Under the pieces are notes generated by a model. That model searched no databases and was not told where the DNA came from. It saw only the letters and a list, made by a program, of their open reading frames with translations. A stretch of DNA of 64,000 nt from an uncultured Gammaproteobacteria bacterium (GTDB lineage Bacteria; Patescibacteriota; Microgenomatia; UBA8517). Shown piece by piece: positions 5,434 through 60,712 of this stretch (positions are counted from its first letter, which is position 1; the number at the start of each line of letters is the position of its first letter). Position numbers and translations under genes: made by a program. The stretch covers positions 345,575-409,574 of the forward strand of contig CAZIMC010000001.1 of the NCBI GenBank assembly GCA_964540475.1, in the 5' to 3' direction.

Positions 5434-5445
5434 TGCGGCACTAAG

Positions 5446-6057
5446 ATGGAAGGCGTTTCTCAAGATAGTCATACTGTCCCAGGAGTTGGATTTCCGCAAG
5501 GTGGAAGTCCTAAACCCAAAAGAAGAACAAGCTTGATAGTGTTTATAATCTTGGGAATCTTGTTTTTAGCAGGTGGCGCAGTATTCTTTATCTCAAGGAG
5601 TAATGAAGAGATTGTATCCACACCTACGCCTACAGGCTTTTTTGAGAGCCAACCTGAAACTCCTACCCCTGAGCCCTCACCAACTCCAAGCCCGGTCAGT
5701 AAAAGCGAGGTTAGGATTGAAGTTTTAAATGGGATTGGTGTACCCGGTGAAGCTGCGTATTTGCAAGGGCAGTTACGAAGTTTGGGATTTACCAATATTA
5801 CTGCTGGAAACGCAGATACAGATGCTGCGACTGCCACTCAGGTTACATTTTCACCTATTGTCTCTCAAGCTATAATGGATGAAATCGAACAGCGTTTAAG
5901 AACAATCTATTCGTCTGTGACTACTAGTTCATCTAGTCTAAGTAATACAGACGTACGGATCGTAACAGGACCCAGAAGAGGTGCAACCCAAGCATCGCCC
6001 GCCGCAACTTCAGCGGCTTCAGCCTCACCCAGTGCAACGCCAACTACAACTAACTAG
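5446..6057 (+). CDS. LytR_C (LytR/CpsA/Psr C-terminal)-domain protein, membrane anchored, with a Pro/Thr/Ser-rich linker
   Basis: It has an N-terminal TM 'LIVFIILGILFLAGGAVFFI' and a 'PTPEPSPTPSP' linker. The block 'VRIEVLNGIGVPGEAAYLQGQLRSLGFTNITAGNAD' is typical of the LytR_C domain. The track start is an upstream TTG, so ATG 5446 is the preferred start. Confidence 0.55.
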   Translation: MEGVSQDSHTVPGVGFPQGGSPKPKRRTSLIVFIILGILFLAGGAVFFISRSNEEIVSTPTPTGFFESQPETPTPEPSPTPSPVSKSEVRIEVLNGIGVPGEAAYLQGQLRSLGFTNITAGNADTDAATATQVTFSPIVSQAIMDEIEQRLRTIYSSVTTSSSSLSNTDVRIVTGPRRGATQASPAATSAASASPSATPTTTN

Positions 6058-11396: not shown

Positions 11397-12248
11397 ATGA
11401 AATTAGCACTAAAATTATTTTGCGGGATGTGCTTCGGATTTGTTGCTTTGGCAAGGGCTCCATCGTTAGTCAGTGCTCAAGTGGTTGTAAATGAAATTAA
11501 TCCATTTGAAGAGTGGGTTGAGCTTTATAAGACTCAATCAGGAGAAGTGAGCATGGAAAATTGTACAATATATTTCCACAACTCAACTTCTTCTTCTCAG
11601 AATAAAGCTTTTACTCCAGATGACAAATTTTTGGAAAATGAAAATTACAAAAAAATAGACACTGGTGCAACTTGGCTCGATAATAATAGTGACACAGTTA
11701 TTCTTGAATGCGATTGGGGTCAAAACTCTGTATCATATGGCACTGGGGGTGTGGTGGTTAAACCTCCTAATGGTAAAACTGTGGGACGATACCCAGACGG
11801 AGGAAGCGGTATTTATGTGTTGGATAGCCCATCGCCTTTAGCAGCTAACGCACTTCCGCCATCACCAACACCAACTCCCACTCCCACACCGACACCTACG
11901 CCCACACCCTCTCCTTCTCCTTCCATTGCTCCAACCCCTTCTCCTAAGCCCTCCCCTTCCCTTAAGCCTGCGCTTTCTCCCAGTCCGACAGCTACAGCTT
12001 CAGCCTCTCCCTTGGGTACAACATTTGATGAAGAAGAAGCCTTAGGCCCAAGAGGTGAAACATTGGGGATTGGAACATCTGCTTCAGCTTCACCAATGGT
12101 TGCTGGTGCCGAAACATCGAGTAGAAAATTTTCGCCGGTTGCAATTATATTAATAGTTGGCGGACTATTACTTGTGGGCTTTGCATTATTTATGTTCTTT
12201 AAGAGCTATCAAAAAGATAAACAAACTGGTGGACCTACCCCTGTATGA
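11397..12248 (+). CDS. Lamin-tail-domain (LTD) protein with Pro/Thr/Ser-rich linker and C-terminal TM anchor
   Basis: It has a signal peptide. The LTD-like start '[32 protein letters not shown]' is followed by the linker '[37 protein letters not shown]' and a C-terminal hydrophobic helix '[21 protein letters not shown]'. Confidence 0.5.
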
Positions 12249-15172: not shown

Positions 15173-15274
15173 AAGACTTTTAGGACATTGGGTTGGCCTA
15201 TCCGCACTTCGGTAGGCCGCCCAAAAATCCTAAAAAAGTAATCAGTTTAGGAGTAATCCGGCAAGAAATTATTT

Positions 15275-17500
15275 ATGAAACATAATTTATATAAAAGAAT
15301 AATTGCAACATTATTAGCAATAGCCCTTATTGTTAATCAGATTGGAATTGCATATGCTAATGCCCAGACTGCTCCAACTCCGCCACCGCCACCCAGCGCG
15401 CCTACGCCCCCTCCAAGCCCAACATCTACTCCAACCCCTCCGCCACCGCCACCCAGCGTGACGCCTGTTCCCACCCCTACTCCTACGCCAGTTGGCACCC
15501 CAACACCCCCTCCTGCACCTACGTGGTCACCGACACCAACCCCCTCGCCCACACCAACCAACACAGCCACAAAGACACCTAAACCCAGTCCATCCCCTAC
15601 TTCTGAGCCTGTTACCTCAACTCAAACTACAACCGGCGGGGGAAATAGTGATGGCAATGTAGGTGCTACCAATGTCGAAACAGGAGATGCTAACAATATT
15701 GCAAATGTTGGGAGTGTTGCAAACACAAATACAGCAGTTGCAGGAGGAAGTGGTGGGAGTATAAATGTACTTAATGATCAAAATGGGCAGGAATCGGCCA
15801 ATAATTCATCAGCTAAAATAGTTACTGATACTAACCTCGATCAAACAAATAGCGCAAAGGTTATCAATAGCCTAGCACAAAACAGCACAACCGGGGAAAA
15901 TTCAGCCTCCAGGAATGTTGGGGATTCGACCATTACAACAGGTGATGCGAACACTACAGGAACGGTTGTAACTTCTGTTAATACTAATGTGGCTGGCATG
16001 ATGGTTTCCGAATTTAATATATTAGATGACCACGTTGGGGATATCATATTGGATTTTGGTGCCAACTGCGTTTCCGGGTGTTCTGGGGCTAACACTAACA
16101 TAGCAAATACTAATAACGGCTCAGCTTCAACAAATTCAGCAACTTTGGATTCAAATAGTGGCGAAGTTGTGTTTCAAAATAACGATGCTTCTGTAGAAAA
16201 TAATTTAGTACTTGAGTCAAACACTGGCGAAAATAGAACCGACAGAAACACGGCCGGGGATTCATCGATTGAAACCGGAGATGCAAACGTTTCTGCTAAT
16301 GTTATTACCTTTGCTAACAACAATATTATTGGTGATGTTATTTATGCGGCGGTAAACATATTCGGGAACCTGGTTGGGGATATTATTTTTCCGGATGGAA
16401 CGCTAATTCCTTGTTGCTTGGGAACCTCTACCGTAGCTAACACCAATAACGGCTCGGGGTCAAACAACACTTCAAATTTGACGCAAAACAATACTGGCGA
16501 TATCTACCAATTTAATAATGTCGACATTCAGAACAATTTAATATTTGATGCAAACACGGGAGGAAATGATATAAGTCGCAATACCAACGGTAATTCATCT
16601 GTTCAAACTGGAGAGTCTAATGTTTTGGCACAGGTAATAAATATTGCTAACAACAATCTTGTGGGCGGGGATTATTGGCTTGTAATTGTTAATGAAGCAG
16701 GTAAATGGGTTGGTAAAATATTGGGCGCGGACGGCAGCTTTATCGCAGGGTCTCCAATATTCGAATTTCTCGTTGGTACATCCGGGGAAGTGAATGTAGC
16801 CAATGCAGATAATGCTAGCGGTACAGAAAATGTTGCATCAGTAACTCAAAATAACAACTCCTCAGTAACACAACTTAATAATGCGCAAATTGTTAACAAT
16901 GTAAATCTTTCAGCGAACACCGGTGATAATTCTGCTAGTAGAAACACTGGGGGAAACAACTCAATAGTAACAGGAGACGCAACTATCATTGCCAATATAG
17001 TGAATTTTGTTAATAACAACATAGTAGGAGGAGGCAGGCTGTTTGTAACTGTTGTTAATGTATTTGGAAGCTGGGTAGGAGATTTTGTTGGTCCTGGCTT
17101 CAAAAAAGAAGTTAAAGATGCGGCCAGTAACCAAAATGATGTTAACGGTGTGGGGGGTATGAGCGAAGGAGACGATCAGGAAAAAAATGGTGATTCAAAT
17201 ACCAACACAGCTGGTGGATCAAAAGAATATACGCAGACAAATCAGACTGCATCCAACCTAAATAATCCTGTTGCCGATAAATTTTACAGTAAAGTTGCAG
17301 GTTTCAGTATTTTAAATTCTCAGGACGACACATTCGGCGGAGGCGGCTTATTACCAGGATCAGAACAGGCAGGCAAAAGAACGGTAAACATCAACCTTGC
17401 CTGGTTACTTCTAGGAGTAGTCCCGTTAGGTGTAGTTACTACTATTATTCGACGTAGACATATTATTCTTAAGTTGGTAAGTAGCAATAAAAAGGTATGA
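15275..17500 (+). CDS. Secreted Pro-rich-linker + Asn/Thr/Gly-rich repeat protein (paralog 2) with C-terminal hydrophobic segment and basic tail
   Basis: It is 741 aa with a signal peptide. The N-terminal linker is 'TAPTPPPPPSAPTPPPSPTSTPTPPPPPPSVTPVPTPTPTPVGTPTPPPAPTWSPTPTPSPTPT'. The repeats are 'ANTG.N.A.RNTG..S..TGDA' with inserted 'NNNI[IV]G(D/G)...V.N..G.WVG' segments. The C-terminus 'GGLLPGSEQAGKRTVNINLAWLLLGVVPLGVVTTIIRRRH' has a motif, TM and positive tail arranged like a cell-wall sorting signal. Confidence 0.8.
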   Translation: MKHNLYKRIIATLLAIALIVNQIGIAYANAQTAPTPPPPPSAPTPPPSPTSTPTPPPPPPSVTPVPTPTPTPVGTPTPPPAPTWSPTPTPSPTPTNTATKTPKPSPSPTSEPVTSTQTTTGGGNSDGNVGATNVETGDANNIANVGSVANTNTAVAGGSGGSINVLNDQNGQESANNSSAKIVTDTNLDQTNSAKVINSLAQNSTTGENSASRNVGDSTITTGDANTTGTVVTSVNTNVAGMMVSEFNILDDHVGDIILDFGANCVSGCSGANTNIANTNNGSASTNSATLDSNSGEVVFQNNDASVENNLVLESNTGENRTDRNTAGDSSIETGDANVSANVITFANNNIIGDVIYAAVNIFGNLVGDIIFPDGTLIPCCLGTSTVANTNNGSGSNNTSNLTQNNTGDIYQFNNVDIQNNLIFDANTGGNDISRNTNGNSSVQTGESNVLAQVINIANNNLVGGDYWLVIVNEAGKWVGKILGADGSFIAGSPIFEFLVGTSGEVNVANADNASGTENVASVTQNNNSSVTQLNNAQIVNNVNLSANTGDNSASRNTGGNNSIVTGDATIIANIVNFVNNNIVGGGRLFVTVVNVFGSWVGDFVGPGFKKEVKDAASNQNDVNGVGGMSEGDDQEKNGDSNTNTAGGSKEYTQTNQTASNLNNPVADKFYSKVAGFSILNSQDDTFGGGGLLPGSEQAGKRTVNINLAWLLLGVVPLGVVTTIIRRRHIILKLVSSNKKV

Positions 17501-18627
17501 TGAAAAAAATCAAACAAATTTTTATGCTGCTGACCATTTCCTCGTCTCTTTTTCATTCTTCTGCATTGTGGGTAGCTGCACAAGAGTTGGTAATTTCCGG
17601 CAATGGTGCGGGTGCGGGCAGCGAGGTCGCTATTCAATCTAATTCAACTACTACTATTTCGCAGAGCAATTCTGGCGAAGTTGTCAATACGGTGGACACC
17701 CAGGCCAATACCGGGGGTAACGAAACTAGTGGTAACAGTGGAGACGTTGCAATACAAACAGGCGATATTGAAAGTTTCACTAAGATTCAGACTAGTTTGA
17801 ACCACTCATCCGTAGTTAATGAGTGCTGTAATGGACCAGAGATAAAAATTGAGGTTAACGAAAACGGTTCAGATTCAACAAATAACGTTTCTGTTACATC
17901 AAACAATCAAACAACCATTACAGTAAATCAAAATGCTACAGTGGGCAATAACGTTTCAGGCACGGCTAATACTGGACATAATACAGCCAATAATAATGGT
18001 GGAAATATTTATATTGGTACAGGTGATATAAAAGCTAAGTCGGTAGTTAAAACTGGTCCAGTAAACTATGTACAAATTCAAGGAGGGTTAAATGGGAGTG
18101 GTCTCAATATTGATGTATCTAATAATGGGGACTCTTCCAACAACCTGGTTACTCTCTTGTTAAATGACCTGGCTAATATAAATGTAAACCATAGTGCTAA
18201 CATCTATAACAAGCTAGATTGGGATCTAAATACTGGTAATAATGTCGCCAATGGAAACAATTGGGATGTAATGATTAAAACCGGCGACATTTTATTAGAT
18301 TTGTTGATCGAGAACGGACCGGTCAATGTTGGTGGAATAACCTGGGGTTGCTGTGATGGAGGCACACCCGATGGACCAGATGATCCCAGTGATCCCGACA
18401 ACGAAGGAAACCCGCCCAAAGGAAGTGGTGGGGGATCTCAAAATGGAGCTTCAATAAGTGAAATATTGGGAATTGGTCAAGGTCCGGCAGTACTTGGTTT
18501 GTCGGCAACGGGAGGTCTGTTTGACGCACCCGTTTACTTCTGGTTGGGTATGTTTCTTATTACCTACGGATTTAAACTACTAGGTGAGAACTTGCCCCGT
18601 ATCCGCTTCGTAAAAAATGGCAATTGA
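17497..18627 (+). CDS. Secreted Asn/Thr/Gly-rich repeat protein (paralog 3), C-terminal TM
   Basis: An ATGA start/stop overlap joins it to the upstream paralog. Its signal peptide is 'MMKKIKQIFMLLTISSSLFHSSALWVAA'. The repeats are 'SGNGAGAGSEV...ANTGGNETSGNSGDVAIQTGD' with CC pairs 'NECCNGPE' and 'WGCCDGG'. The C-terminus is '...LSATGGLFDAPVYFWLGMFLITYGFKLLGENLPRIRF'. Confidence 0.8.
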   Translation: MMKKIKQIFMLLTISSSLFHSSALWVAAQELVISGNGAGAGSEVAIQSNSTTTISQSNSGEVVNTVDTQANTGGNETSGNSGDVAIQTGDIESFTKIQTSLNHSSVVNECCNGPEIKIEVNENGSDSTNNVSVTSNNQTTITVNQNATVGNNVSGTANTGHNTANNNGGNIYIGTGDIKAKSVVKTGPVNYVQIQGGLNGSGLNIDVSNNGDSSNNLVTLLLNDLANINVNHSANIYNKLDWDLNTGNNVANGNNWDVMIKTGDILLDLLIENGPVNVGGITWGCCDGGTPDGPDDPSDPDNEGNPPKGSGGGSQNGASISEILGIGQGPAVLGLSATGGLFDAPVYFWLGMFLITYGFKLLGENLPRIRFVKNGN

Positions 18628-19168
18628 AAAGACCACTAGGGAGAAACTTGGTTTGGCTATATCGCTAATTGTATTGGGCGTACTATTTATATGGAATAGG
18701 ACACCTTCCACTGTCGCCTCTGACACTTTCAAGAATGAACCAGTTAAAGTTCAGGGCTTTGACACACAGAATGCAGAGGGAGACTTGCCTACGAGGGTCG
18801 TTATTCCTGGCCTGGGCATAGATTTACCAGTCGAAAGAGCAAAAATTATAGACGGATATTGGGAAGTATTTGAAGATACGGCAGCTTGGGGAGAGGATTC
18901 TGGGTTACCGGGTAAGCCGGGAAATCAGGTGGTTTTTGCTCACGCCAGAGAGGGTTTATTTTTACCCCTTAAAGACGTCTCTGAGGGGGAAGTTATTTAT
19001 ATTTTGACAAATAGTGATTGGTATTCATATAAGGTGGCTGAAATAAAAGAAGTACTCCCAAATCAGACAGAGGTAATTGCACCCACCCTTGATGAAACGC
19101 TTACACTTTATACTTGTTCTGGGTTTAACGACAGTAAGAGACTTATTGTCATAGCTAAGAGAGTCTAA
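18617..19168 (+). CDS. Sortase (transpeptidase) family protein
   Basis: This 183-aa ORF overlaps the 3' end of paralog 3 by 11 nt. It has an N-terminal TM 'LGLAISLIVLGVLFIW', a conserved His in 'VVFAHAREG', the catalytic 'LTLYTCSG' (TLxTC) motif and a downstream Arg ('SKRLIVIAKR'). Confidence 0.8.
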   Translation: MAIEKTTREKLGLAISLIVLGVLFIWNRTPSTVASDTFKNEPVKVQGFDTQNAEGDLPTRVVIPGLGIDLPVERAKIIDGYWEVFEDTAAWGEDSGLPGKPGNQVVFAHAREGLFLPLKDVSEGEVIYILTNSDWYSYKVAEIKEVLPNQTEVIAPTLDETLTLYTCSGFNDSKRLIVIAKRV

Positions 19169-19176
19169 AACTACAA

Positions 19177-19207
19177 GGGGGATCTTTGGTCTACTCAAAG
19201 ATCCCCC
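19177..19207. terminator. Bidirectional hairpin terminator between the convergent sortase and minus-strand repeat-protein genes
   Basis: A perfect 12-bp inverted repeat 'gggggatctttg'/'caaagatccccc' flanks a 7-nt loop. It lies 8 nt after the sortase stop and 17 nt after the minus-gene stop. A T-rich tract on the minus-strand side (complement of 'acaaaa'). Confidence 0.5.
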
Positions 19208-19223
19208 ACAAAATAGTGGGTTG

Positions 19224-19820
19224 TTAGTTGAGAACGTTTTCTCCACCAACGACTTCCACACCGACATTTGTTTCAGACTCGTCGGTTGTTAGATCTACAG
19301 TTCCGCCAACATTGTTGTTGGCTTTGTTTTTACCAGTTAAGCTTTTGAATAAAGCGGATAAGCCGACACTTACTTTAGATTTTTGCTTGATGTCTAGTTT
19401 GGTTTTACTTTTGACATCAATTTTATTAGTAGTGCTATTGCCGTTTCCGACAATACTTAAAGCGTTATTTTCCTGGTCCTCGCAGCAGCAGTCAGGAGTG
19501 GTAGCTGTATTCGACCCTCCCGAGACCAACACTCCGATCGAGGTTGCAGCAGCGCCAGTTCCGATGCTTACGCCACTTCCAACATTGGAATTTGCGGTAT
19601 TGCCGCCAGTGTTTGATACAGCCGTTATTCCCACACCCACGCTTGCGTTTGAGTTTTGGGTTAGCTTTGTAGTACACTTGGTGTTTACCAATATTTTATT
19701 ATTGGAATTATTTCCATTCTCACCGATTGTCAAATCGTCAGCAGAAACGGATGTAACCAAAAGTGATAAGGTTAGGAGTGCAGTGCCTGTTCCGGCAAAC
19801 ACTTTTGCTAGTTTATTCAT
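19224..19820 (-). CDS. Secreted Asn/Thr/Gly-rich repeat protein (paralog 4, short)
   Basis: This 198-aa ORF has the signal peptide 'MNKLAKVFAGTGTALLTLSLLVTSVSA', repeats 'SNTGGNTANSNVGSGVSIGTG' and a Cys cluster 'PDCCCEDQ'. Its SD 'aaaggaggtga' and upstream 15-mer are the same as in the + strand operon. A fully overlapping + strand ORF (19228-19824) is judged a shadow ORF. Confidence 0.75.
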   Translation of the reverse strand: MNKLAKVFAGTGTALLTLSLLVTSVSADDLTIGENGNNSNNKILVNTKCTTKLTQNSNASVGVGITAVSNTGGNTANSNVGSGVSIGTGAAATSIGVLVSGGSNTATTPDCCCEDQENNALSIVGNGNSTTNKIDVKSKTKLDIKQKSKVSVGLSALFKSLTGKNKANNNVGGTVDLTTDESETNVGVEVVGGENVLN

Positions 19821-19939
19821 TTAAATCACCTCCTTTCTGGCAAGTTTATTAATTTGAAGTGACAAATTGATCTCTTGTTGAATCGACAAGAAGTGACTCG
19901 AGACGTACCTAGTAGACAGATATATCTTCTTCATAAAAA

Positions 19940-20101: not shown

Positions 20102-21061
20102 ATGCTACATAATCTGTCCCATCTTTTTATTCCCAGAGAGAGCAATAACTATAAAGCCAAGTTGCTACACCACAGTGGTATTTTAGTGCTAATTTCCCTT
20201 TTAATTACGTTTCAAGGTTTTGTAAACTTGTTACCTAAAATTAGCCCCAGCGTTTTAGGTTATGCTGCAAATATTTCACCTGATGATGTAGTAAGGTTAA
20301 CCAACGAAAAGCGTATACAAGCAGGACTTTCCCCATTATCGCATAATTCTGTATTATCAAGTGCAGCGCAAGCAAAAGCGGTGCATATGATTGAAAATGA
20401 TTATTGGGCACACGTGGCCCCAGATGGCACTCAGCCATGGAAATTCTTTACTGACTTTAGTTATAAATATAAATACGCCGGAGAGAATTTGGCTCGTGAT
20501 TTTTCAAATCCTAATTCTGCGGTTGAGGCTTGGATGAATTCACCAACCCACAGAGACAACATGCTATCCTCCAAATATCGAGAAATAGGGATCGGCGTTG
20601 TGGAAGGTGATCTTAACGGAGTTGATACGACCATTATTGTTCAGTTTTTTGGAACTAATTACGCAGATTCGCTTCCACCTGCACCTGTTGCCCAAGTTCA
20701 GAATGTTGCCAATATTGCTTCGCCCGCCCCCACTTTGCAGCCAACATCAACACCCACCTTAACACCTACTCCCACCCCCGCTCCCATCTCTAGTTCAACA
20801 CCTTTCGTAGAAGTTATCACAACCCCTGTGCCACAAACCGCTGTATTGGAAGATCAGCGGGTGTTAATTTCTCCATTTGTAACTTCGAAAGGCGTATCCT
20901 TAAGTATAGTGGGTATACTATTGCTAGTTTTAGTTGTTGATGGAGTTGTGGTGTCAAGGCGGCGAATTGCAAGAATTGGCGGACGAACATTTGCTCACCT
21001 GGCTTTCCTGGGTATGATCCTAACAATTGCTGTAATACTTAAAGCAGGGAGGGTCATATGA
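20102..21061 (+). CDS. CAP/SCP/PR-1 superfamily domain protein with Pro/Thr linker and C-terminal TM
   Basis: The CAP-domain blocks are 'AAQAKAVHMIENDYWAHVAPDG', 'YAGENLARDFSNPNSAVEAWMNSPTHRDNMLSSKYREIGIGVV'. They are followed by the linker 'PTSTPTLTPTPTPAPISSSTP' and a TM 'LSIVGILLLVLVVDGVVV'. Confidence 0.7.
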   Translation: MLHNLSHLFIPRESNNYKAKLLHHSGILVLISLLITFQGFVNLLPKISPSVLGYAANISPDDVVRLTNEKRIQAGLSPLSHNSVLSSAAQAKAVHMIENDYWAHVAPDGTQPWKFFTDFSYKYKYAGENLARDFSNPNSAVEAWMNSPTHRDNMLSSKYREIGIGVVEGDLNGVDTTIIVQFFGTNYADSLPPAPVAQVQNVANIASPAPTLQPTSTPTLTPTPTPAPISSSTPFVEVITTPVPQTAVLEDQRVLISPFVTSKGVSLSIVGILLLVLVVDGVVVSRRRIARIGGRTFAHLAFLGMILTIAVILKAGRVI

Positions 21062-23681: not shown

Positions 23682-23754
23682 GACATATAACTACCCACAA
23701 AGCAATGGACATGTTGAATTATACAAAAGGAGCTGGAGATAAAGAACGTTCATA

Positions 23755-26046: not shown

Positions 26047-27186
26047 ATGGACAAAGTGGTAATCGTAATGCCAGCCTATAAGGAAGCTGAAAATATTGGC
26101 CCAATGATAGAGGAACTTGTTGGCAAAGAGTTCCCCAAAATAGACAATGCAGATATGCATTTGCTAGTGGTAAATGATCTACCCCCTGATGGATCAGCCG
26201 ATGACGGCACAGGAGAGATCGTCAAAAAGGCTATGGAAAAATACAAAAATCTCCACATTTTGGAGGATAAGAAACAGGGGTTGGGGTGGGCATATATTCG
26301 CGGTTTCAGGTATGCCATGGAGAAATTAAATGCCGATGCTGTAATGGAAATGGATGCGGATTTCCAGCATCCTCCGAGGTTTGTTAAAGATATGGTCGCC
26401 GCGTATCTAGACGGTGCCGATTATGTAATAGGTTCAAGGTATATTAAAGGCGGTTCCGTTCCTGCCGAATGGGCTTTCAGTCGTAAAGCGATAAGTTACT
26501 TTGGTAATTTATTCATCAGATTGGTTTTGACTAAACCCGGTCTGCACGATTTAACAACTGGTTTTAGATTAACAAGGGTTAAGGGGGTATTAGAAAAAAT
26601 AGATTTAGAAAATTTGATGGAACCCCACCTCTTTGCACACAAAGTGGATCTTTTATATCAAAGCGTCAAAAATGCCAAAAAGGTTACCGAAGTTCCTTTG
26701 GAGTTTGCCGCAAGGACAAAGGAAAAATCAAAGTTTAACCCTAAAGAAATGATTGGAACTTTCAAGGTGGCAATTATTTTGGGTATCAGAGACAAAAAAA
26801 GGTTTATTAAGTTTGGTATAGTAGGAACTAGCGGATATTTGGTAACGGCGTTCTCGATTCATTTTCTTGCAAGGACACCACTTCCTGAATGGGCGATTTG
26901 GGCAACCGCTACTGAGCTTGCAATCATCAATAATTTTACTTTCAACAATATCTGGACGTTTAGAGATGCAGAAATAAAGGGGTTTTGGCACCTTGTACAG
27001 AAATTCTTGCAATTTAACTTAACTTCAGCTGGCGCGCTTGTAATTCAGACTGTGGCAGGTACTATTGGTGTTTATTTTCTGGGACCTCAGTACAGGCAAT
27101 TAATCTTACCCTTCGTAACAGTTGGGCTGGTAATGCCTTATAACTACTTAATGTACAATCTGGTTATCTGGAGAACAAAGCTTTAA
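26047..27186 (+). CDS. Polyprenyl-phosphate sugar synthase: DPM1/GtrB-like GT2 fused to a GtrA-like 4-TM domain
   Basis: The N-terminal GT2 has 'VIVMPAYKEAENI' and the DPM1-type 'EMDADFQHPP'. The C-terminal ~120 aa form four TMs ('KFGIVGTSGYLVTAFSIHFLA...NNFTFNNIWTF') typical of GtrA-family proteins. Confidence 0.7.
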   Translation: MDKVVIVMPAYKEAENIGPMIEELVGKEFPKIDNADMHLLVVNDLPPDGSADDGTGEIVKKAMEKYKNLHILEDKKQGLGWAYIRGFRYAMEKLNADAVMEMDADFQHPPRFVKDMVAAYLDGADYVIGSRYIKGGSVPAEWAFSRKAISYFGNLFIRLVLTKPGLHDLTTGFRLTRVKGVLEKIDLENLMEPHLFAHKVDLLYQSVKNAKKVTEVPLEFAARTKEKSKFNPKEMIGTFKVAIILGIRDKKRFIKFGIVGTSGYLVTAFSIHFLARTPLPEWAIWATATELAIINNFTFNNIWTFRDAEIKGFWHLVQKFLQFNLTSAGALVIQTVAGTIGVYFLGPQYRQLILPFVTVGLVMPYNYLMYNLVIWRTKL

Positions 27187-42932: not shown

Positions 42933-42933
42933 T

Positions 42934-43835: not shown

Positions 43836-46280
43836 ATGAAAGACCTGTCAATAATAATTGTAAATTATAATACTCCCGATTTGGTGCAAGATTGTGTTAG
43901 TTCGATAAAGTCCTCAAAAACAAAACTAAATTACGAAATTATTGTAGTTGATAATGGTTCTGACAAAAGGCCGTCGAAGCTAAAAGACTGTACTCTCATA
44001 GTAAATAAAGAAAATCTGGGATTCGCAAAAGCGAACAATCAAGGGTTAGAAATTGCCAAAGGAAAGCACATACTGGTTCTTAACTCGGATACCCTGGTCG
44101 AAGAAGGAGCGTTAGACATGCTTTTCAGTTTTGCTGAAAATACTGGTGATGCTGGGGTTGTAGGACCGAGACTTTTAAATAAGGATGGATCACTACAGAA
44201 GTCATGCTTTAATTTTCCATCGATTAAAAACGCAATATTGGAGTTTTGGTTTAACAAAAAGGGCGCTTATCAAAAGTTTGCTCCCGAAACAACAAACCCG
44301 GTTGCGGTGGACGCAGTAGTTGGTGCGGCCTTTTTGATAACCCAAAAGGCTAAAAAGCGTGTCGGGAAACTAAACGAGAAATATTTTATGTATTTTGAAG
44401 ACTTGGATTATTGCAGGAAGGTAAAAAAAGCTGGATTAAAAACATATTATTTACCTCAAGCTCAAATTGTTCATTATCACGGAGCAAGCGGAAAGAAACT
44501 TAAGAAAGCTAGCGATCAATGGAAGCGGTTAATCCCTGCTAGTAAAATTTATCATGGCACGGTTAAGCATTACTTGTTGTCTGCGATTATTTGGTCGGGT
44601 CAACGATTTTCCTCATACTTACCCTTCTTTTTGGTATTGGTTATTACCATACCTGCATTTTGGCATTTATTAAAACCAGGCTTTTTCCCCATGCAAGACG
44701 ATCTTCAGGCATTTCGCGTACAGCAGTTGGATAAATGTCTTGACGATCTGCAAATTCCCTGCCGTTGGGTGCCGGATGCGGGTTATCAGTATGGTTACCC
44801 GCAATTTAATTATTATCCCCCATTACCTTATTATGTTGGAGCCATATTGCATAGAGTAGGGCTTCAATATATCGATGTTGTTAAGGTTCTTTTCATATTG
44901 GGATACATTTTTTCAGCATATGCCATATACGTTTTAGTCTCTGAAATTGCAAACAAATGGTCTGGCTTTGTGGTGTCGATTTTGTATACGTATATCCCAT
45001 ACAAGGCGGTAGAAGTTTATGTGAGAGGTGCGCTAAACGAGTTTTGGGCACAAATATTTTTTCCTTTAATACTGTGGTCTATTTATAAAATTGTTAAATC
45101 AGGTAGTAATAAATATTTAATTTTACTAGGAATTTCACTTGCCTTATTGTCAACTACACATTTATTGATGACTTTAATTTTCATACCTGTTACAGCAATT
45201 TGGGCCCTTTACTGGCTAAAAGTAGGAGAAGGGAAGAATCTAAAAAAATTAATATTGGGTGGATTATTAAGTATTGGTCTATCGGCATTTTTTGTTTTTC
45301 CGGTAATTTTCGAAAAAAGGTTTGCCCATGTCGAAAGCATGCTTTCAGGGTATTTTGATTATAGACAACATTTCATTAGCCTATATAAAATGTTTCTATC
45401 AAGAGAATGGGGATATGGCTCATCAGGTTTTCCTGATGAATTGCTGAACCTCTCACTGGGGCTAGTTCAATGGATAGCCGCCTTGGGTGCTACGGTAATT
45501 GCTTTCATAAAATTTCGAGGCGACAGGAAAACTTCTAGTCTTGTACTTCTCTTGTCTGTTACTACGCTTGCAAGCATTTTTATGATGCATATGAAGTCCA
45601 GTTTTATCTGGGCAAATCTTCCGGTTTTATGGTATTTACAGTTTCCCTGGAGATTTCTAGCTGTTAGTATATTTTTAACATGTATCTTGTCTGGGTTTTT
45701 AATTTACTTTATTAAACGGTATAGGTATTTGATTGGCGTATTTCTGATAATATTAGCGTTTGTATTAAATATTTCTTATTTTGTTCCCAAAGATTGGTAT
45801 TATATTTCAGATGAAGAAAAGTTTTCAGGCGTTTTCTGGGAAAAACAATTAACTATAAGTATATTTGACTATCTACCAATATATGCAACGCTCCCTCCCC
45901 CTTCCAAGGCACCTGAATTACCAGAGGTGCTTGAAGGGGAAGTCGTTTTTGAGTCCTACAATAAACGAAGTAATTATCAATATGGGGAAGTAGAGGTTCT
46001 AGAGGAAGCTTTAGTTAGAGTGCCGTTATTCGATTTTCCTGGGATGGTGGTTACGGCGGGTGGAAACAAAATTGTCCATTGGAATGATGAGTGTAGACAT
46101 GAGCCGTATTGCTTAGGCCTTATCACCTTCCGGTTGCCTCCTGGTAAGTATGACTTAAATATAGCCCTTCAGAATACCCCGGTAAGAAGTGTGGGAAACT
46201 TTCTTACAATATTTACCCTTTTGATACTTGTAATATATGCTTACAGACAAAAAAGAAATGAAAAGCTTGCTAACCAATAA
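43836..46280 (+). CDS. Fusion protein: N-terminal GT2 glycosyltransferase + C-terminal family B GT-C membrane domain
   Basis: Residues 1-250 carry 'LSIIIVNYNTPDL', 'IVVDNGSDK', 'LVLNSDT' and 'YFEDLDYC' (GT2). Residues about 270-814 carry 'FFPMQDDLQAFRVQQLDKCLDDLQIPCRWVPDAGYQYGYPQFNYYPPLPYY' and 'FPWRFLAV' (family B) across about 13 TMs. Confidence 0.6.
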   Translation: MKDLSIIIVNYNTPDLVQDCVSSIKSSKTKLNYEIIVVDNGSDKRPSKLKDCTLIVNKENLGFAKANNQGLEIAKGKHILVLNSDTLVEEGALDMLFSFAENTGDAGVVGPRLLNKDGSLQKSCFNFPSIKNAILEFWFNKKGAYQKFAPETTNPVAVDAVVGAAFLITQKAKKRVGKLNEKYFMYFEDLDYCRKVKKAGLKTYYLPQAQIVHYHGASGKKLKKASDQWKRLIPASKIYHGTVKHYLLSAIIWSGQRFSSYLPFFLVLVITIPAFWHLLKPGFFPMQDDLQAFRVQQLDKCLDDLQIPCRWVPDAGYQYGYPQFNYYPPLPYYVGAILHRVGLQYIDVVKVLFILGYIFSAYAIYVLVSEIANKWSGFVVSILYTYIPYKAVEVYVRGALNEFWAQIFFPLILWSIYKIVKSGSNKYLILLGISLALLSTTHLLMTLIFIPVTAIWALYWLKVGEGKNLKKLILGGLLSIGLSAFFVFPVIFEKRFAHVESMLSGYFDYRQHFISLYKMFLSREWGYGSSGFPDELLNLSLGLVQWIAALGATVIAFIKFRGDRKTSSLVLLLSVTTLASIFMMHMKSSFIWANLPVLWYLQFPWRFLAVSIFLTCILSGFLIYFIKRYRYLIGVFLIILAFVLNISYFVPKDWYYISDEEKFSGVFWEKQLTISIFDYLPIYATLPPPSKAPELPEVLEGEVVFESYNKRSNYQYGEVEVLEEALVRVPLFDFPGMVVTAGGNKIVHWNDECRHEPYCLGLITFRLPPGKYDLNIALQNTPVRSVGNFLTIFTLLILVIYAYRQKRNEKLANQ

Positions 46281-47919
46281 CTGGGAAAAGATTTTGTTGA
46301 TACTCCTTGGTCTTACGTTATCATGGCCTATTTTTGTTCGTGGATATTTCTCGCATCATGACGACCTTCAGGTTATAAGAATTTTTGAAATGCGCAACTG
46401 TCTTGTTGATTTGCAAATTCCCTGCCGATGGGTCTCCAATATGGGCAATGGTTATGGTTTTCCTCTGTTTAATTACTATAATCCGCTTCCTTACTATATT
46501 GGTGGTTTGGCAAGTTTCATAACTGGATATGTTAACGCTGCTAAGCTTTTGTTCCTGATACCCGCCGTTTTTTCCGGATTGGCAATGTATTTATTTGTTG
46601 AACAATTGACGAACAAAAAAACCGCAATATTGGCAGGCGCACTATACACACTAGCTCCTTATAGAGCCCTTGATTTATATGTCCGGGGGGCGATTGGGGA
46701 AAGTTTTGCAATACTCATTGTTCCTCTTTTGTTCTATATGAGCCTATTACTAACGAAAGATCCAAAACCAAAACATTTTATTGTTATGACACTTGTGACC
46801 TTTGCCTTTTTAGTGAGTCATAATGTTTCGGTGGTGTTGTGGGCACCTGTTTTTTTAATTTGGTTTATATATCTTGTATATAAATACAAATTGAAAGCTA
46901 TCTGGCCTGTAGTACTTTCGGTATTAATAGGTATCGGTATTTCTTCTTTTTTTGTTATCCCTGCATTTATGGAAAGAGATTTAGTAACGACTGAAAACTT
47001 AATAAGCACGGACTTGGATTTTAGAAATCATTTCGTTTCATATAAACAGCTCCTGTTTGACAGGGAATGGGGTTACGGAGCATCCGTTCCTGGACCGGAA
47101 GATGACATGTCATTTCAGGTTGGCTACCCGCACTGGTTACTGGCTATCCTGGCTCCGGCACTGTTTCTTTTAAAAAGAAAAAATCTTAACGATGGATTAG
47201 CGCCTATCATAACGATATTTACAGCGATTTTCTTATTGTCATTATTCATGACACACAACAAATCTTCATTTGTGTGGGAAAATTTTAGTATATTGCAATT
47301 TGTCCAATTCCCATGGAGATATTTGTCTATCACTATATTTGCATCATCAATCCTCGGGGGGCTAATTGTTTATATGTTAGACAAGCAATTTGCCAAAGCG
47401 ATTATCATAATTCTTTTTATAACAACATTTTTTTTAAACTGGCATTACTTTAAGCCTCAGCTATTTTTCACTGATACGAATGATGTAAGTAAGTTGAGCG
47501 GACGGCAGTGGGATAACCAGATCGAAGGATCAATGTTAGACTATTTACCAAAAGGCGCCATTGAAATGGGAGAAAAGTCATCTGATTATCCACGTCTTCT
47601 TGAGGGCGACGGGGATGTTGCGCCTTTAGTCAAGAAAACAAACAGTTGGCAGGCGGCAGTAAATTTATCCGAAGACGGCAAGATTATTATACCGGTTTAT
47701 GATTTTCCTATATGGCGGGTTAGGCTTAATGGTAAAGAGGTAAACCATAGTACGCATGAAGGGCTAATACTGTTAGATTTGCCCGATGGAGAGAACATGA
47801 TCGATGGGAAATTAGAAAATACTCCCATTCGCACCGTATCGAATGCAATTACACTTTTAAGTCTGGCAGGTTTACCTGCCCTATTAATATATGGAAAAAG
47901 CAGAAAGATTCTTAGATAA
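46237..47919 (+). CDS. GT-C-fold membrane protein, family B paralog
   Basis: 'YFSHHDDLQVIRIFEMRNCLVDLQIPCRWVSNMGNGYGFPLFNYYNPLPYY', 'DREWGYGASVPGPEDDMSF' and 'FPWRYLSI' are close to the C-terminal half of the upstream fusion protein. Confidence 0.5.
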   Translation: MLTDKKEMKSLLTNNWEKILLILLGLTLSWPIFVRGYFSHHDDLQVIRIFEMRNCLVDLQIPCRWVSNMGNGYGFPLFNYYNPLPYYIGGLASFITGYVNAAKLLFLIPAVFSGLAMYLFVEQLTNKKTAILAGALYTLAPYRALDLYVRGAIGESFAILIVPLLFYMSLLLTKDPKPKHFIVMTLVTFAFLVSHNVSVVLWAPVFLIWFIYLVYKYKLKAIWPVVLSVLIGIGISSFFVIPAFMERDLVTTENLISTDLDFRNHFVSYKQLLFDREWGYGASVPGPEDDMSFQVGYPHWLLAILAPALFLLKRKNLNDGLAPIITIFTAIFLLSLFMTHNKSSFVWENFSILQFVQFPWRYLSITIFASSILGGLIVYMLDKQFAKAIIIILFITTFFLNWHYFKPQLFFTDTNDVSKLSGRQWDNQIEGSMLDYLPKGAIEMGEKSSDYPRLLEGDGDVAPLVKKTNSWQAAVNLSEDGKIIIPVYDFPIWRVRLNGKEVNHSTHEGLILLDLPDGENMIDGKLENTPIRTVSNAITLLSLAGLPALLIYGKSRKILR

Positions 47920-49552
47920 GTACATTATAATATTCTTTTTATTACTCACCATTCCGGCTACATGGTCGCTTTTTAAATTCGGATTTTTTGGGGTGTCGGA
48001 TGATTTGCACATAGGCTGGCTTCATCAAATGCATAGAGCAATTAGTATGGGCCAGTTTCCCGCCAGATATGTTCCGGATCTAAGTTACGGTTTTGGTTAC
48101 CCGCTCTTTAATTTTTATGCACCTCTACCATTTTATATCGGCGAAATTTTTCATAATTTGGGTTTTAGTTTGGTTGATAGTATTAAGGCCTTGTTTCTTA
48201 TTAGCCTTCCTCTATCGGGGTACTTTATGTACAAACTACTAAGAGAGTTTGGTAATCCTTTCGTTTCTTTATTTGGAGGACTTTTATATGTTTATACACC
48301 GTACCGAGCAACCGATATTTTTGTTAGGGGAGCGGTGGGGGAGGCGACTGTTTTTATTTTTATACCATTAGTGGTTTTATCATTTATTAAAGTCTTTAAA
48401 AGCCAAAACTTGGATTATAAATCGATTGGATTAGGGGGACTTTCATTGGCACTATTGATAACGTCGCACAATATTACTGCCTTAATCTTATATTCCCTTC
48501 TTATTCCCCTATTTTTAATTTATTTGTATTTTTCCAAACAGCGGCTAATGCATTTTTTATCAACACTTTATGTTTCTTTGCTTGGACTTTTGATAAGCAG
48601 TTTTTTTTGGGTTCCTGCTATTGTTGAAAGTGGGCTAGTAAAATATGACACAGTCTTTAATTATTGGGATCACTTCCCAACATTAAGGCAACTTGTAACT
48701 CCTTATTTTGGTCACGGTGCGTCTGTCCCTGGTCCATATGACTTGATGTCTTTCTATGCGGGAATTGTGAATGTTTCTCTTATTATTGCGGGTACTGTTT
48801 TAGTTTTTAAGATAAATAAGGTTCCAGTTAATATAAGGCCGTTTATGTTCTGGCTGGTACTAATAAGTATGATTTCAGTTTTCTTTATGAACCACCGTTC
48901 GGCATTTCTTTGGGAAAATCTACCATTAATTGCATATTTCCAGTTTCCGTGGAGATTTCTAACAATTATAACTTTTGCCAGTGCTGGTTTGGCTGTTTTA
49001 CTGAGTGTTGTTAAGAAAAACAGAATTTTTTCTGTGATACTGATCTTGGTTGTTATTGGTATAAACTATTCATATTTTAGGCCGGAATCTTTTTTGGGAC
49101 GGACTGATGAATATTACATTGATAGATACATACCTTTTCCCAACGCAAGCGAAGCATATAAGCAAACTGGTGAGGAATATTTAAGATTGCCCCAGGACAC
49201 GCAAATCCGTCCGAGTGAGAATTACCCACGGTTTTATTCTGATCAAATTGAAATTAAAAATATCGAAATAATAAATCCGTTAAATGCCAGAGCGCATGTG
49301 GTATCAAGCGGCGTTGGACTCCTGAATTATAATAAATATAACTATCCCGGTTGGGTTGTTGAGATTAATGGTGTAAATACTCCAATTGAGACCGGGACAC
49401 CATATGGGCAGATTGCAGTTGTAGTTCCAGAAGGAGAACACCTTGTTGAAGTTCGTTTTAGCGAAACCCCTTTTAGGACAGTATTTAATTTTATATCGGT
49501 AAGCGCATTGATTGTTGCGGCAATTTTGATAATCAAAGGAATTCGAAAGTAA
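47891..49552 (+). CDS. GT-C-fold membrane protein, family B paralog
   Basis: 'FFGVSDDLHIGWLHQMHRAISMGQFPARYVPDLSYGFGYPLFNFYAPLPFY', 'GHGASVPGPYDLMSF' and 'FPWRFLTI' are the family B blocks. Confidence 0.5.
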   Translation: MEKAERFLDKYIIIFFLLLTIPATWSLFKFGFFGVSDDLHIGWLHQMHRAISMGQFPARYVPDLSYGFGYPLFNFYAPLPFYIGEIFHNLGFSLVDSIKALFLISLPLSGYFMYKLLREFGNPFVSLFGGLLYVYTPYRATDIFVRGAVGEATVFIFIPLVVLSFIKVFKSQNLDYKSIGLGGLSLALLITSHNITALILYSLLIPLFLIYLYFSKQRLMHFLSTLYVSLLGLLISSFFWVPAIVESGLVKYDTVFNYWDHFPTLRQLVTPYFGHGASVPGPYDLMSFYAGIVNVSLIIAGTVLVFKINKVPVNIRPFMFWLVLISMISVFFMNHRSAFLWENLPLIAYFQFPWRFLTIITFASAGLAVLLSVVKKNRIFSVILILVVIGINYSYFRPESFLGRTDEYYIDRYIPFPNASEAYKQTGEEYLRLPQDTQIRPSENYPRFYSDQIEIKNIEIINPLNARAHVVSSGVGLLNYNKYNYPGWVVEINGVNTPIETGTPYGQIAVVVPEGEHLVEVRFSETPFRTVFNFISVSALIVAAILIIKGIRK

Positions 49553-58737: not shown

Positions 58738-59184
58738 CTACTTTCCTAAAGCTGCAATCCTTGCTTCATTCTGATCGAAGAAGTTATTTAGATAGTCAAT
58801 ATTGGTTTTCAGGTAAAGCTCATTCATTAACGCCCTAGCCTGTAGCTGGCGAATCCTTGCTTTTTCCAGGTGTTTGTAAGCGAGCTTAACATGCCCTTTT
58901 TCTTTCATTATAGTAGCCTCGGTGATCCTTTTTGATGATATGGTCAAGTGCCAATATGCCCAGTCTTCCTCACCCAGTACAAATAGTGAGGTGAAGCTTT
59001 CTCTGCCGACTTTAAGTAGATGCAAGGGTGAAAGAGACACCGCGCCTAATCCATGAACGACTGCTGTGTAGATAAGTATTAAAAACATAGCGATAACGCC
59101 AAATTTCCTTTTGTGTAGCATGGCCATTCTGTCCATGTTAACATAGGTTATCATGTTATTCACCATACTTCTGGCCTTATTCAC
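58738..59184 (-). CDS. Hypothetical small membrane protein
   Basis: This 148-aa minus-strand ORF has one TM ('FGVIAMFLILIYTAVVHGLGAV') and a helical C-terminus. It overlaps the start of the next + strand gene by about 30 nt. Confidence 0.3.
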   Translation of the reverse strand: MNKARSMVNNMITYVNMDRMAMLHKRKFGVIAMFLILIYTAVVHGLGAVSLSPLHLLKVGRESFTSLFVLGEEDWAYWHLTISSKRITEATIMKEKGHVKLAYKHLEKARIRQLQARALMNELYLKTNIDYLNNFFDQNEARIAALGK

Positions 59185-60712
59185 CTCAGTTAGGGCTTAT
59201 GGGCTTCTTGAATATCCAATTTACTTAGATGAAGGTGTTTATATCTGGTGGGCATACCTTTTCAATATTGATAGTAACTTTGCCTATAATTCTATGCAGG
59301 ATGGGAAAACGCCACTTTTTATTTGGCTGACTGCAGCACTTCATGAATATGTAAAACCCTACATTCTCTCGGGGAGATTGATTTCAGTTTTCTCAGGCGC
59401 AATAAGTGCAATTGCCTGGCTGTCAATCTTCAAGCTGGCTTTTAAAAAATCCAGTATATTTTGGCCGTTTGTAATATTTATAGTTGCCCCGTACGCGTTA
59501 TTTGTTGAGAGGATGGCGTTTGTTGACAGCCTTCTTGTTGCTTGCGGAAGTCTGTCTATCCTTTTCTTTTACGCTAGCAGCAGATTTGTGGATTCACGGC
59601 GATATAGGCTTTCTTTATTAGCAGCTTCTGTAGCTGGAGTGTTTTTAGGGCTTTCCTACTTGACCAAAACTTCCGCAGTAGCTTTTTTGTACGCAACCTT
59701 TGCAGTCGGTACGCTTTGGGTTATAAGAAAGCTATGTTTAAGAAAGTATCTGGAGTCAGCTTTTTTGGTGGTTAACACAATTATCTTGTATTTGGTGTAC
59801 AACGAGTTTCTGGTGGCTCTAAGGGTTGCTGCACATCGATTTGATAATGTCGGAGTAAAAGAAGCTGGATTGACGTATACGTTGCCTGAAATATTGTCTA
59901 GTTTAACTACTGCCGCAGGGAGTAAGATTTACCTATCTTCCTTGAATGTGGTTTCTCAATATTTTGTGGTTTATTTGAGCAGTTTTTTGCTACTTTTTTT
60001 GTTGGGTGGGGTCTTGATAGTGAGATACCATAGGAAATCCGCCTGGATTCTGCTTTACATGCTAGTGATTTTTGTTGGCACTTTTCTTTCAGCCAAAGTT
60101 ACTGCTACTCGCTATTTTTATCCGGTAGTTCCTTCGATAATTATTATTGCCGGCTTTGGGGCTGGGTGGCTTTGGGAAAGAAGGGACAAAGCGCTGAGAG
60201 TAATGCTAATTGCTGCATTCTTTCTACCTGTCTACCAAGCGGCTCGGGTTGTTGTCGATCCAGTAAATGCAACTCACGCTTCTCATGAGCAAAACTTCGT
60301 GTCTTCGGATCTTACCGCGATTGGGCTAAGCGAAGTAATACAAATTTTACATGATACTGCTGATCAGTCAGTTGTGGGTGTAGTTGGTGTTTGGGGGATA
60401 GGAGATGGGGCAGCACTTACTTTGAATGAGGCGGGAATGGAGGCGTACCCTGTAAACCTTTTCGTATTTGAAGGTCCAGGTCGCGAAGGTAGTTGTACGT
60501 TTGAAAAGAAAAAGATTGGTGATGTCTGTTATCAACTGACTATCGACCGAATAATTGATAGCACAAAACCTAATAAGTATTTGTATATCGTACCCAGGAA
60601 TGTTGACTTATCAGTTTTAAGGCAGCTTATTGATTTTGAGCTGGTAAGGGAGTTTGAGAGACCTATGAGTGATGCACGCGTTTACTTGCTAAGGCTGCAC
60701 GGAACTCCTTAA
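59153..60712 (+). CDS. ArnT/PMT-like GT-C membrane glycosyltransferase
   Basis: 'IYLDEGVYIWWAYLF...MQDGKTPLFIWLT' parallels 'IFADEAIYIRWAQ...SDGKQPLFMWVM' of the ORF at 36211. It is 519 aa with a C-terminal soluble domain. Confidence 0.55.
   Translation: MLFTILLALFTSVRAYGLLEYPIYLDEGVYIWWAYLFNIDSNFAYNSMQDGKTPLFIWLTAALHEYVKPYILSGRLISVFSGAISAIAWLSIFKLAFKKSSIFWPFVIFIVAPYALFVERMAFVDSLLVACGSLSILFFYASSRFVDSRRYRLSLLAASVAGVFLGLSYLTKTSAVAFLYATFAVGTLWVIRKLCLRKYLESAFLVVNTIILYLVYNEFLVALRVAAHRFDNVGVKEAGLTYTLPEILSSLTTAAGSKIYLSSLNVVSQYFVVYLSSFLLLFLLGGVLIVRYHRKSAWILLYMLVIFVGTFLSAKVTATRYFYPVVPSIIIIAGFGAGWLWERRDKALRVMLIAAFFLPVYQAARVVVDPVNATHASHEQNFVSSDLTAIGLSEVIQILHDTADQSVVGVVGVWGIGDGAALTLNEAGMEAYPVNLFVFEGPGREGSCTFEKKKIGDVCYQLTIDRIIDSTKPNKYLYIVPRNVDLSVLRQLIDFELVREFERPMSDARVYLLRLHGTP

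Follow-up and report, generated by a model that had tools for sequence, protein, structure and literature searches.

Are the proline-, threonine- and serine-rich tracts of bacterial surface proteins substrates for the membrane glycosyltransferases encoded near them, or are they spacers? This question is raised by a 64,000-nucleotide (nt) stretch of DNA, hereafter the window, from an uncultured bacterium of the GTDB lineage Patescibacteriota; Microgenomatia; UBA8517 (assembly GCA_964540475.1, contig CAZIMC010000001.1, positions 345,575 to 409,574 of the forward strand). An earlier sequence-only reading of the window had singled out a low-complexity tract in a 741-residue surface repeat protein, pointed to similar tracts in three other exported proteins, and proposed that PMT-like enzymes encoded in the window O-glycosylate them. 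Based on its composition, predicted disorder, predicted extracytoplasmic location and the conservation of composition over sequence among orthologs, the flagged tract is a disordered Pro/Thr-rich linker. We infer that this tract and its three counterparts act as spacers, and we put the probability that a disordered, extended, Pro/Thr-rich surface-protein spacer is the whole story at roughly 0.55. That the tracts are also O-glycosylated is possible but doubtful.

The scan for such tracts covered 55 open reading frames (ORFs) and required at least 15 Pro, Thr or Ser residues, at least five of them Pro, in a 20-residue segment. It found exactly four tracts, located in the LytR_C, LTD-like, repeat and CAP-domain proteins, the same four that the sequence-only reading had named. 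Pfam confirms the LytR_C and CAP labels (36 and 75 bits, respectively); the LTD match, at 19.6 bits, lies under its cutoff. Each of the four belongs to one of approximately 14 ORFs that have either a signal peptide or one to three hydrophobic anchors; the other 41 ORFs, which are cytoplasmic or polytopic, contain none (hypergeometric p = 0.003). The tract-bearing proteins are predicted to be exported or membrane-anchored, with the tracts in their extracytoplasmic parts, as had been supposed. In the LytR_C, LTD-like and CAP-domain proteins the tract forms a stalk between the membrane anchor and a globular domain, while the flagged repeat protein carries its tract as a free tail at the N-terminus.

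Pro/Thr (PT) tracts are also found beyond the window. A surface locus from Candidatus Woesebacteria (L001) contains four more within 20 kb, and PT tracts thus appear to be a general, lineage-wide habit of surface proteins. At that locus, a subtilisin-like protease (1965-3344) has a long C-terminal (TP)n tract, and the segment TPTPTPPTPTPP joins the domains of a second membrane protein (14732-16126); the domains of both were labelled by sequence reading and not by a family scan.

The flagged protein consists of a signal peptide, the Pro/Thr-rich tail, four beta-rich modules, a disordered stretch (residues 612-705) and a C-terminal transmembrane helix (residues 708-736). Its tail of 93 residues includes 38 Pro, 26 Thr and 10 Ser, with one acidic and two basic residues. 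In an AlphaFold2 model based on 42 orthologs, residues 23-120 have a predicted local distance difference test (pLDDT) score of 30-57 and no secondary structure, and the beta modules score 80-95. The family comprises 1258 homologs at approximately 50% identity, the named ones occurring in Woese-, Gottesman-, Levy-, Davies- and Amesbacteria, and the protein is a conserved, predicted surface component of the Microgenomates, which belong to the candidate phyla radiation (CPR). Orthologs have equivalent A-x-A sites immediately before the Pro-rich tail. Moreover, a Pro-rich, low-complexity tail, variable in length and sequence, occupies the same position in every member of a comparison set of 111 orthologs with a clear signal peptide. 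The median tail composition is 0.21 Pro, 0.27 Ser plus Thr (range 0.15-0.43) and 0.16 Asp plus Glu. Many of these tails are rich in Pro, Ala and Glu (PEAPSAPE type) and others in Thr, with the window tail ranking sixth for Ser plus Thr. The property conserved in the tail is thus Pro-richness with moderate Ser/Thr enrichment, one that is compatible with glycosylation and not diagnostic of it.

The identity of the remainder of the protein could not be read from known families: a Pfam scan found none, and all NCBIfam matches were far below their cutoffs. A Foldseek search of the model against the PDB returned nothing significant. A curli-like identity, suggested by the repeats, is unsupported, as the amyloids FapC and CsgA, the best matches, appear only at E values of 0.75-10.

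At the DNA level, the flagged tract has a GC content of 62%, with C making up 50% of the + strand; the GC content of the window is approximately 40%. The sequence-only reading was correct that a 19-mer, ccgccaccgccacccagcg, is present twice, but its positions are 15380 and 15440 and not 15375 and 15447; it lies within an exact 21-mer, CTCCGCCACCGCCACCCAGCG, found at 15378 and 15438. As the longest exact repeat was 17 nt or shorter in all of 5000 codon shuffles of the tract, the 21-nt duplication is a real local duplication and not a by-product of composition. Tandem Repeats Finder and a repeat finder detected no tandem array in the tract besides this single duplication, and we therefore reject a DNA-level microsatellite. 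The tract makes about even use of the four codons for Pro and the four for Thr, which, together with the lack of a DNA tandem repeat, indicates that the low complexity resides at the protein level, with selection on amino-acid composition.

These features also bear on the possibility of a hypervariable or contingency region, in which slippage in C-rich DNA would alter the length of the tail and thereby vary a surface antigen or phage receptor, with the composition a side effect. Such a region could account for a 21-nt duplication beyond chance, for the wide variation in tail length among orthologs, and for a short array of 6-nt periodicity in the LTD-like tract (11859-11908). However, there is no long perfect tandem array, the synonymous codons are mixed, and Pro-rich composition has been kept over deep divergence. 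In addition, as each repeat unit is a multiple of three in length, a slippage event would lengthen or shorten the tail and provide no expression switch. We consider this the least probable of the explanations weighed here, and a far-fetched one.

For the spacer reading we propose the following model. The all-beta repeat protein would be secreted and anchored in the membrane by its C-terminus, with the flagged segment as its free N-terminal tail. The tracts would adopt extended, polyproline-II-like, uncharged conformations, spanning approximately 6-29 nm if fully extended, and may hold domains in place or extend them across the cell wall and past it. Their evolution would proceed by local duplication and slippage, with selection acting on composition and not on sequence.

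Several observations weigh against spacing as a complete explanation. All four tracts of the window are almost uncharged, and each contains 5-25 Pro-flanked Ser/Thr residues. The motif P[ST]AP occurs in 85 of the 111 ortholog tails. A typical proteome contains approximately 12-13% Ser plus Thr, and these residues are about two-fold above that level in every ortholog tail. A free N-terminal tail, such as the flagged one, is not explained by a simple wall-spanning role, and a spacer role and glycosylation are not mutually exclusive. The proposed resemblance to known O-glycosylated sequences is also borne out: the (PT)n linkers of Cellulomonas bear 32-65 mannoses (PMC12757957), and mannosylation sites in Mycobacterium tuberculosis are disordered and rich in Pro, Ala, Ser and Thr (PMC12331936). 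The Pro-flanked Ser/Thr context of the window tracts matches that of both. Finally, the Firmicute Caldicellulosiruptor bescii secretes enzymes, CelA among them, with Thr-Pro segments between their domains, and all glycosylation detected on them depends genetically on Cbes_1864 (CAZy GT39; 556 residues), which threads onto ArnT, AglB and PglB (PMC6151902). Because this ArnT-like enzyme is needed for glycosylation of Thr-Pro-linker enzymes, a non-GT39 architecture does not exclude protein acceptors.

Features of the window, in order of position. aa, amino acids; GT, glycosyltransferase; TM, transmembrane; AF2, AlphaFold2.
Feature	Position	Strand	Details
P/T/S tract, LytR_C protein	5647..5706	+	gene 5404-6057; between N-terminal TM anchor and LytR_C domain
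P/T/S tract, LTD-like protein	11841..11990	+	gene 11397-12248; between globular domain and C-terminal TM anchor
Surface repeat protein gene ("repeat protein 2"), 741 aa	15275..17500	+	ORF; homologs; AF2 model
Signal peptide, aa 1-28, A-Y-A cleavage-type site	15275..15358	+	hydrophobic segment aa 9-27; cleavage position inferred
Pro/Thr/Ser-rich tract (flagged)	15359..15637	+	aa 29-121; composition scan; AF2-predicted disorder
Exact 21-nt duplicate, copy 1	15378..15398	+	CTCCGCCACCGCCACCCAGCG; encodes PPPPPS
Exact 21-nt duplicate, copy 2	15438..15458	+	60 nt 3' of copy 1
Sortase gene	18617..19168	+	same operon as 741-aa protein; Pfam Sortase, E 2.6e-22
P/T/S tract, CAP-domain protein	20717..20809	+	gene 20102-21061; between CAP domain and C-terminal TM segments
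GT2 with C-terminal GtrA-type TM domain, DPMS homolog	26047..27186	+	Pfam Glycos_transf_2 and GtrA_DPMS_TM; 5mlz match
Weak PMT_2 GT-C, 386 aa	27645..28805	-	Pfam
PMT_2 GT-C, 548 aa	29572..31218	+	Pfam; directly 3' of GT2 28883-29590
Fusion of two GT-C modules (PTPS_related and weak PMT_2), 1063 aa	32243..35434	+	Pfam
PMT_2/PMT GT-C, 500 aa	36211..37713	+	Pfam; directly 3' of GT2 35452-36204
Three PTPS_related (PF10131) GT-C genes	43836..49552	+	Pfam; first (43836-46280) fused to N-terminal GT2
Paralogous PMT_2 GT-C, 623 aa	53356..55227	+	Pfam
Paralogous PMT_2/PMT GT-C, 576 aa	56239..57969	+	Pfam
Weak PMT_2 GT-C, 519 aa, with DE motif	59153..60712	+	Pfam
Best-conserved PMT_2/PMT GT-C, 547 aa	61855..63498	+	GT-C_A fold; DE motif D33-E34; C-terminal soluble domain

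If the tracts are glycosylated, the enzyme would most plausibly be one of the GT-C glycosyltransferases of the window, transferring hexose to Ser/Thr of the Pro-rich tracts, with the DPMS-like GT2 supplying the sugar on a polyprenyl-phosphate carrier. Transfer as the protein emerges from the Sec translocon would yield mucin-like, protease-resistant glycosylated surface linkers, and the likeliest candidates would be 61855-63498, 56239-57969, 53356-55227 and 36211-37713, which form the group resembling ArnT and oligosaccharyltransferases (OSTs). The acceptor side suits this proposal, which we hold only tentatively, in that the tracts are predicted to lie outside the cytoplasm, bear almost no charge and have many Ser/Thr residues next to Pro, and the Cellulomonas linkers, the M. 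tuberculosis sites and Cbes_1864 supply precedents. The variation among ortholog tails, from Thr-rich to Pro/Ala/Glu-rich, speaks against it.

On the enzyme side, approximately 15 polytopic GT-C-like proteins are encoded in 36 kb (27645-63498). Six of them score above the Pfam cutoff for PMT_2 (PF13231) and nine match at E <= 0.01, so the earlier count of seven PMT/ArnT-like paralogs was roughly right. The PMT family proper (PF02366; cutoff 22.7 bits) is exceeded by 36211-37713, 56239-57969 and 61855-63498 (40.3, 44.9 and 45.1 bits, respectively), which favors hexosylation; the matching stretch scores equally well or better with PMT_2, a family that also covers ArnT-type enzymes. PTPS_related is found in four window proteins and GT87 weakly in one. 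Three polytopic proteins (49552-51537, 55224-56312 and 60663-61832) have no significant Pfam match, and the last of these has a weak, sub-cutoff NCBIfam match of the MptA type. In their first external loop, six of the window paralogs have a catalytic DE motif that does not vary among 38 orthologs of 61855-63498; this counts in favor of hexosylation, but the motif is common to most GT-C enzymes and hence not diagnostic of a PMT.

Features more specific to GT39 enzymes were not detected. None of the 15 GT-C proteins has a Pfam match to PMT_4TMC (PF16192), the C-terminal module of four transmembrane helices, or to MIR, the loop domain by which eukaryotic PMTs recognize acceptors. In the M. tuberculosis enzyme MtPMT, a WW-like hairpin in external loop 4 (EL4) confers a preference for Pro-rich acceptors (PMC12331936); a pattern search for its signature (P-x2-W..Y..L-x3-P) gave no credible match in the PMT_2-type proteins. 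An NCBIfam scan of nine GT-C proteins returned only matches far below cutoffs, including 18-20 bits for PRK13279, the equivalog of ArnT (GT83, the lipid A aminoarabinose transferase), the cutoff of which is 567.

The best-conserved enzyme, 61855-63498, belongs to a family with 59-66% identity across more than 120 clusters. Residues D33-E34 are invariant in 38 of 38 orthologs, as is R358, which follows a disordered loop (351-354); the orthologs have no invariant R-x2-[YF] there, a motif that in MtPMT (R441/Y444, in EL5) lies next to the catalytic Asp. A single-sequence phmmer search of this protein against the PDB gave chance matches only, while a profile of the 38 orthologs retrieved ArnT (5ezm; E = 0.024) and STT3 (E = 0.046) and no PMT. 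The AlphaFold2 model (pLDDT 86; predicted template-modelling (TM) score 0.87) contains a GT-C core and a C-terminal soluble alpha/beta domain of approximately 125 residues, and the stretch from residue 68 to residue 441 is free of beta strands. It ends in the soluble domain, as do ArnT and OST, and the C-terminal transmembrane ending of PMTs is not seen. Foldseek found 23 PDB matches at E <= 1e-3, all of them GT-C enzymes: STT3, AglB and PglB match at E values of 1e-8 to 1e-6 with TM scores of approximately 0.5, ArnT reaches TM scores of 0.55/0.56, and the PMTs score lower (Pmt4, 0.44; Pmt1/2, 0.33 at E = 1e-2). By its model, 61855-63498 is a GT-C class A fold with the ArnT/OST architecture. 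Because STT3, AglB and PglB glycosylate proteins, their place among the nearest folds is a point for hexosylation.

The orthologs of this enzyme share a further invariant segment, S-x-D-W-Q-Y-G (residues 419-425; 38 orthologs), directly after the last transmembrane helix. Its location is reminiscent of the oligosaccharyltransferase motif WWDYG, the likeness being one of position only, and paralogs differ at the site (EWYMEG, RWTAGYG).

Taken together, none of the approximately 15 GT-C enzymes of the window has the GT39 PMT architecture; they are ArnT/OST-like (class A) proteins and members of other GT-C families. The assignment of these enzymes to PMT/GT39 therefore fails on the missing PMT_4TMC, MIR and WW-like loop and on an ortholog profile and fold nearer to ArnT/OST than to Pmt1/2/4, and the absence of this architecture is a point against hexosylation of the tracts.

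The donor side of that proposal is better furnished. The DPMS homolog at 26047-27186 matches the P. furiosus Dol-P-Man synthase 5mlz over its full length (E = 1.3e-38; residues 3-377) and likely makes a polyprenyl-phosphate-hexose donor, as hexosylation would need. Four GT2s of the window, this one included, resemble polyprenyl-phosphate-sugar synthases, and there are three GT2/GT-C gene pairs (28883/29572, 35452/36211 and 57989/59153). A Wzx-like flippase (37767-39266) and five cytoplasmic GT2/GT4 genes (39313-43833) are also present. We propose that the GT-C locus carries out a conserved extracytoplasmic glycan assembly, which would be fed by the polyprenyl-phosphate-sugar synthases and of which the acceptor could be protein, a wall glycopolymer or a lipid.

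Related loci suggest what that acceptor might be. Orthologs of 61855-63498 in four other assemblies (L003-L006) always lie within GT-C arrays with GT2, GT4 and Wzx genes. The arrays of these relatives include PMT_2, PMT, GT87-like, PIG-M/PIG-V-like and YfhO proteins, and in one of them TagF-like and ABC-transporter genes occur as well. Such surroundings suit the assembly of a wall glycopolymer or lipoglycan, which is the more likely function for most of the array. No PT tract occurs within 10 kb of the GT-C array in the four related loci, and no GT-C gene within 10 kb of the Woesebacteria sortase/linker locus (one genome). The sequence-only reading had taken the co-occurrence of linkers and GT-C genes as evidence for glycosylation, but, as their proximity is not kept in relatives (10-kb flanks), it does not represent conserved synteny and carries little weight in such a small genome.

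The same gene content allows for a different route to glycosylated tracts. PglL/PilO enzymes transfer glycans en bloc to low-complexity Ser/Thr/Pro regions in Neisseria and Acinetobacter. In the window, GT2/GT4 enzymes could build a lipid-linked oligosaccharide that would be flipped by Wzx and transferred to such regions by an O-oligosaccharyltransferase-like enzyme. The Wzx-like flippase, the five cytoplasmic GT2/GT4 genes and rmlABCD could provide the glycan, and either the 61855-63498 family, OST-like in fold, or one of the three polytopic proteins without a significant Pfam match (60663-61832 being weakly MptA-like) the transferase. However, none of the proteins scanned has a Wzy_C/PglL-type domain, no initiating phosphoglycosyltransferase was identified within the window, and a wall polysaccharide of the Wzx/Wzy type would typically be made by just such genes, so we regard this route as very unlikely.

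Hexosylation by a GT-C enzyme faces a similar difficulty, in that polysaccharide or lipoglycan assembly is a better fit for a set of 15 GT-C paralogs, drawn from four or more families, alongside cytoplasmic GTs, Wzx and rml. Furthermore, the proximity of the GT-C array to the linker genes is not conserved, and the case is built on analogy and the presence of a donor pathway. We thus favor the spacer reading: the tracts are of an ordinary spacer type, and what is more unusual in the window is its GT-C array and its repeat proteins linked to a sortase.

The ultra-small bacteria of the CPR are believed to live in attachment to other cells, and the biochemistry of their surfaces is almost unstudied. 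A literature search on CPR bacteria, Patescibacteria, Microgenomates and Saccharibacteria found nothing relevant on O-glycosylation of proteins, on PMT/GT39 or on GT-C enzymes. If the linkers are glycosylated, a protein O-glycosylation system would be indicated for the first time in the CPR, and part of the large investment in GT-C enzymes (approximately 15 paralogs in 38 kb) would acquire a function. More speculatively, Microgenomates, and perhaps Patescibacteria generally, could possess a general protein O-glycosylation system in which the highly conserved ArnT/OST-like 61855-63498 family, with its invariant DWQYG motif, takes the place of a canonical GT39 PMT and, fed by an archaeal-type polyprenyl-phosphate-mannose synthase, decorates the Pro/Thr-rich tails and stalks of surface proteins for episymbiotic attachment; we think this unlikely.

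The flagged gene is part of a sortase operon (13871-19820) with genes for four all-beta repeat proteins, paralogs of one another and rich in Asn, Gly and Thr (13871-15172, 15275-17500, 17497-18627 and, on the minus strand, 19224-19820), which match neither a Pfam family nor, significantly, any PDB fold. The sortase has its closest relative in Candidatus Woesebacteria, which, together with the named homologs of the flagged protein, points to a source of the Microgenomates type within the CPR/Patescibacteria. The C-terminus of the 741-residue protein contains its transmembrane helix and an RRRH tail, preceded by a conserved motif, K-x-V-x-INLAW, and not by LPXTG. The gene directly 5' of the sortase, by comparison, encodes a protein ending in [VM]LGLSAT[GS] followed by a hydrophobic segment and a basic tail, and this arrangement recurs in three unrelated proteins from three genomes (17497-18627 in the window, with LGLSATG; 9459-9986 in L001; and 6628-7437 in a further locus, L002). 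LSATG, in place of LPXTG, looks like a variant sorting signal. Two 198-residue ORFs on opposite strands overlap near-perfectly at 19224-19824. The minus-strand ORF, with a signal peptide and the NTGGN/TGxA repeats of the surface repeat-protein family, is probably the real gene, and the plus-strand ORF looks spurious.

In the wider window, SecA, RF2, FtsE/X and M23 peptidase genes are followed by the surface-protein genes (5-21 kb), rmlABCD and a 38-kb glycosyltransferase block. The rml genes (rmlA, rmlB, rmlC and rmlD; 21883-25271), labelled by sequence reading, form a complete dTDP-rhamnose-type set separating the surface-protein and glycosyltransferase blocks. Strand bias is extreme, with 50 of the 55 analysed ORFs on the + strand, and GC skew is positive in 30 of 32 two-kb bins, the cumulative skew climbing almost throughout.

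Among known systems, the O-mannosylated (Pro-Thr)n linkers of actinobacteria, exemplified by Cellulomonas fimi and Cellulomonas flavigena cellulases and by M. tuberculosis Apa, are of the same disordered, Sec-exported type with Pro-flanked Ser/Thr. These linkers and Pro-rich ends, like the window tracts, occur at termini or between domains. The actinobacterial donor is a polyprenyl-phosphate sugar, for which the window has a DPMS homolog. In contrast to the actinobacterial GT39 Pmt, the GT-C enzymes of the window lack PMT_4TMC and the WW-like EL4, and PMT is neither a profile match nor the best structural neighbour. C. bescii offers another parallel: it is likewise monoderm and has a GT-C of approximately 550 residues with ArnT, AglB and PglB as neighbours, as for 61855-63498. 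However, Cbes_1864 lies within a few genes of its substrate gene and is the sole GT39 of its genome, whereas the window has approximately 15 GT-Cs in a separate locus.

Two other systems use similar enzymes on non-protein acceptors. Gram-positive bacteria modify teichoic acids and rhamnose polysaccharides by three-component extracytoplasmic glycosylation, in which a GtrB-like GT2 and a flippase act with a GT-C enzyme (YfhO, GacL, Csd). The paired GT2/GT-C genes, the single GtrA-type GT2, rmlABCD and Wzx of the window, and the YfhO and TagF-like proteins of its relatives, recall this arrangement, but the GT-C paralogs of the window are far more numerous and diverse. We know of no acceptor polymer in CPR bacteria. 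The lipomannan and lipoarabinomannan (LAM) arrays of Corynebacteriales (PimE and MptA/B/C; GT87) are evoked by the GT87/MptA-like matches of 51547-52746 and 60663-61832, which are weak and far below the family cutoffs, by the PIG-M-like and PIG-V-like genes of relatives, and by the PPM-synthase-type GT2 of the window.

Pro-rich spacers that are not glycosylated include the EP/KP region of TonB and the wall-spanning regions of Gram-positive surface proteins. The window tracts differ from these in being unusually Thr/Ser-rich and uncharged and, for the flagged one, in forming a free N-terminal tail. They share with them an extended, Pro-rich and anchor-adjacent character in which composition is kept over sequence, and many of the ortholog tails, being rich in Pro, Ala and Glu, resemble these spacers.

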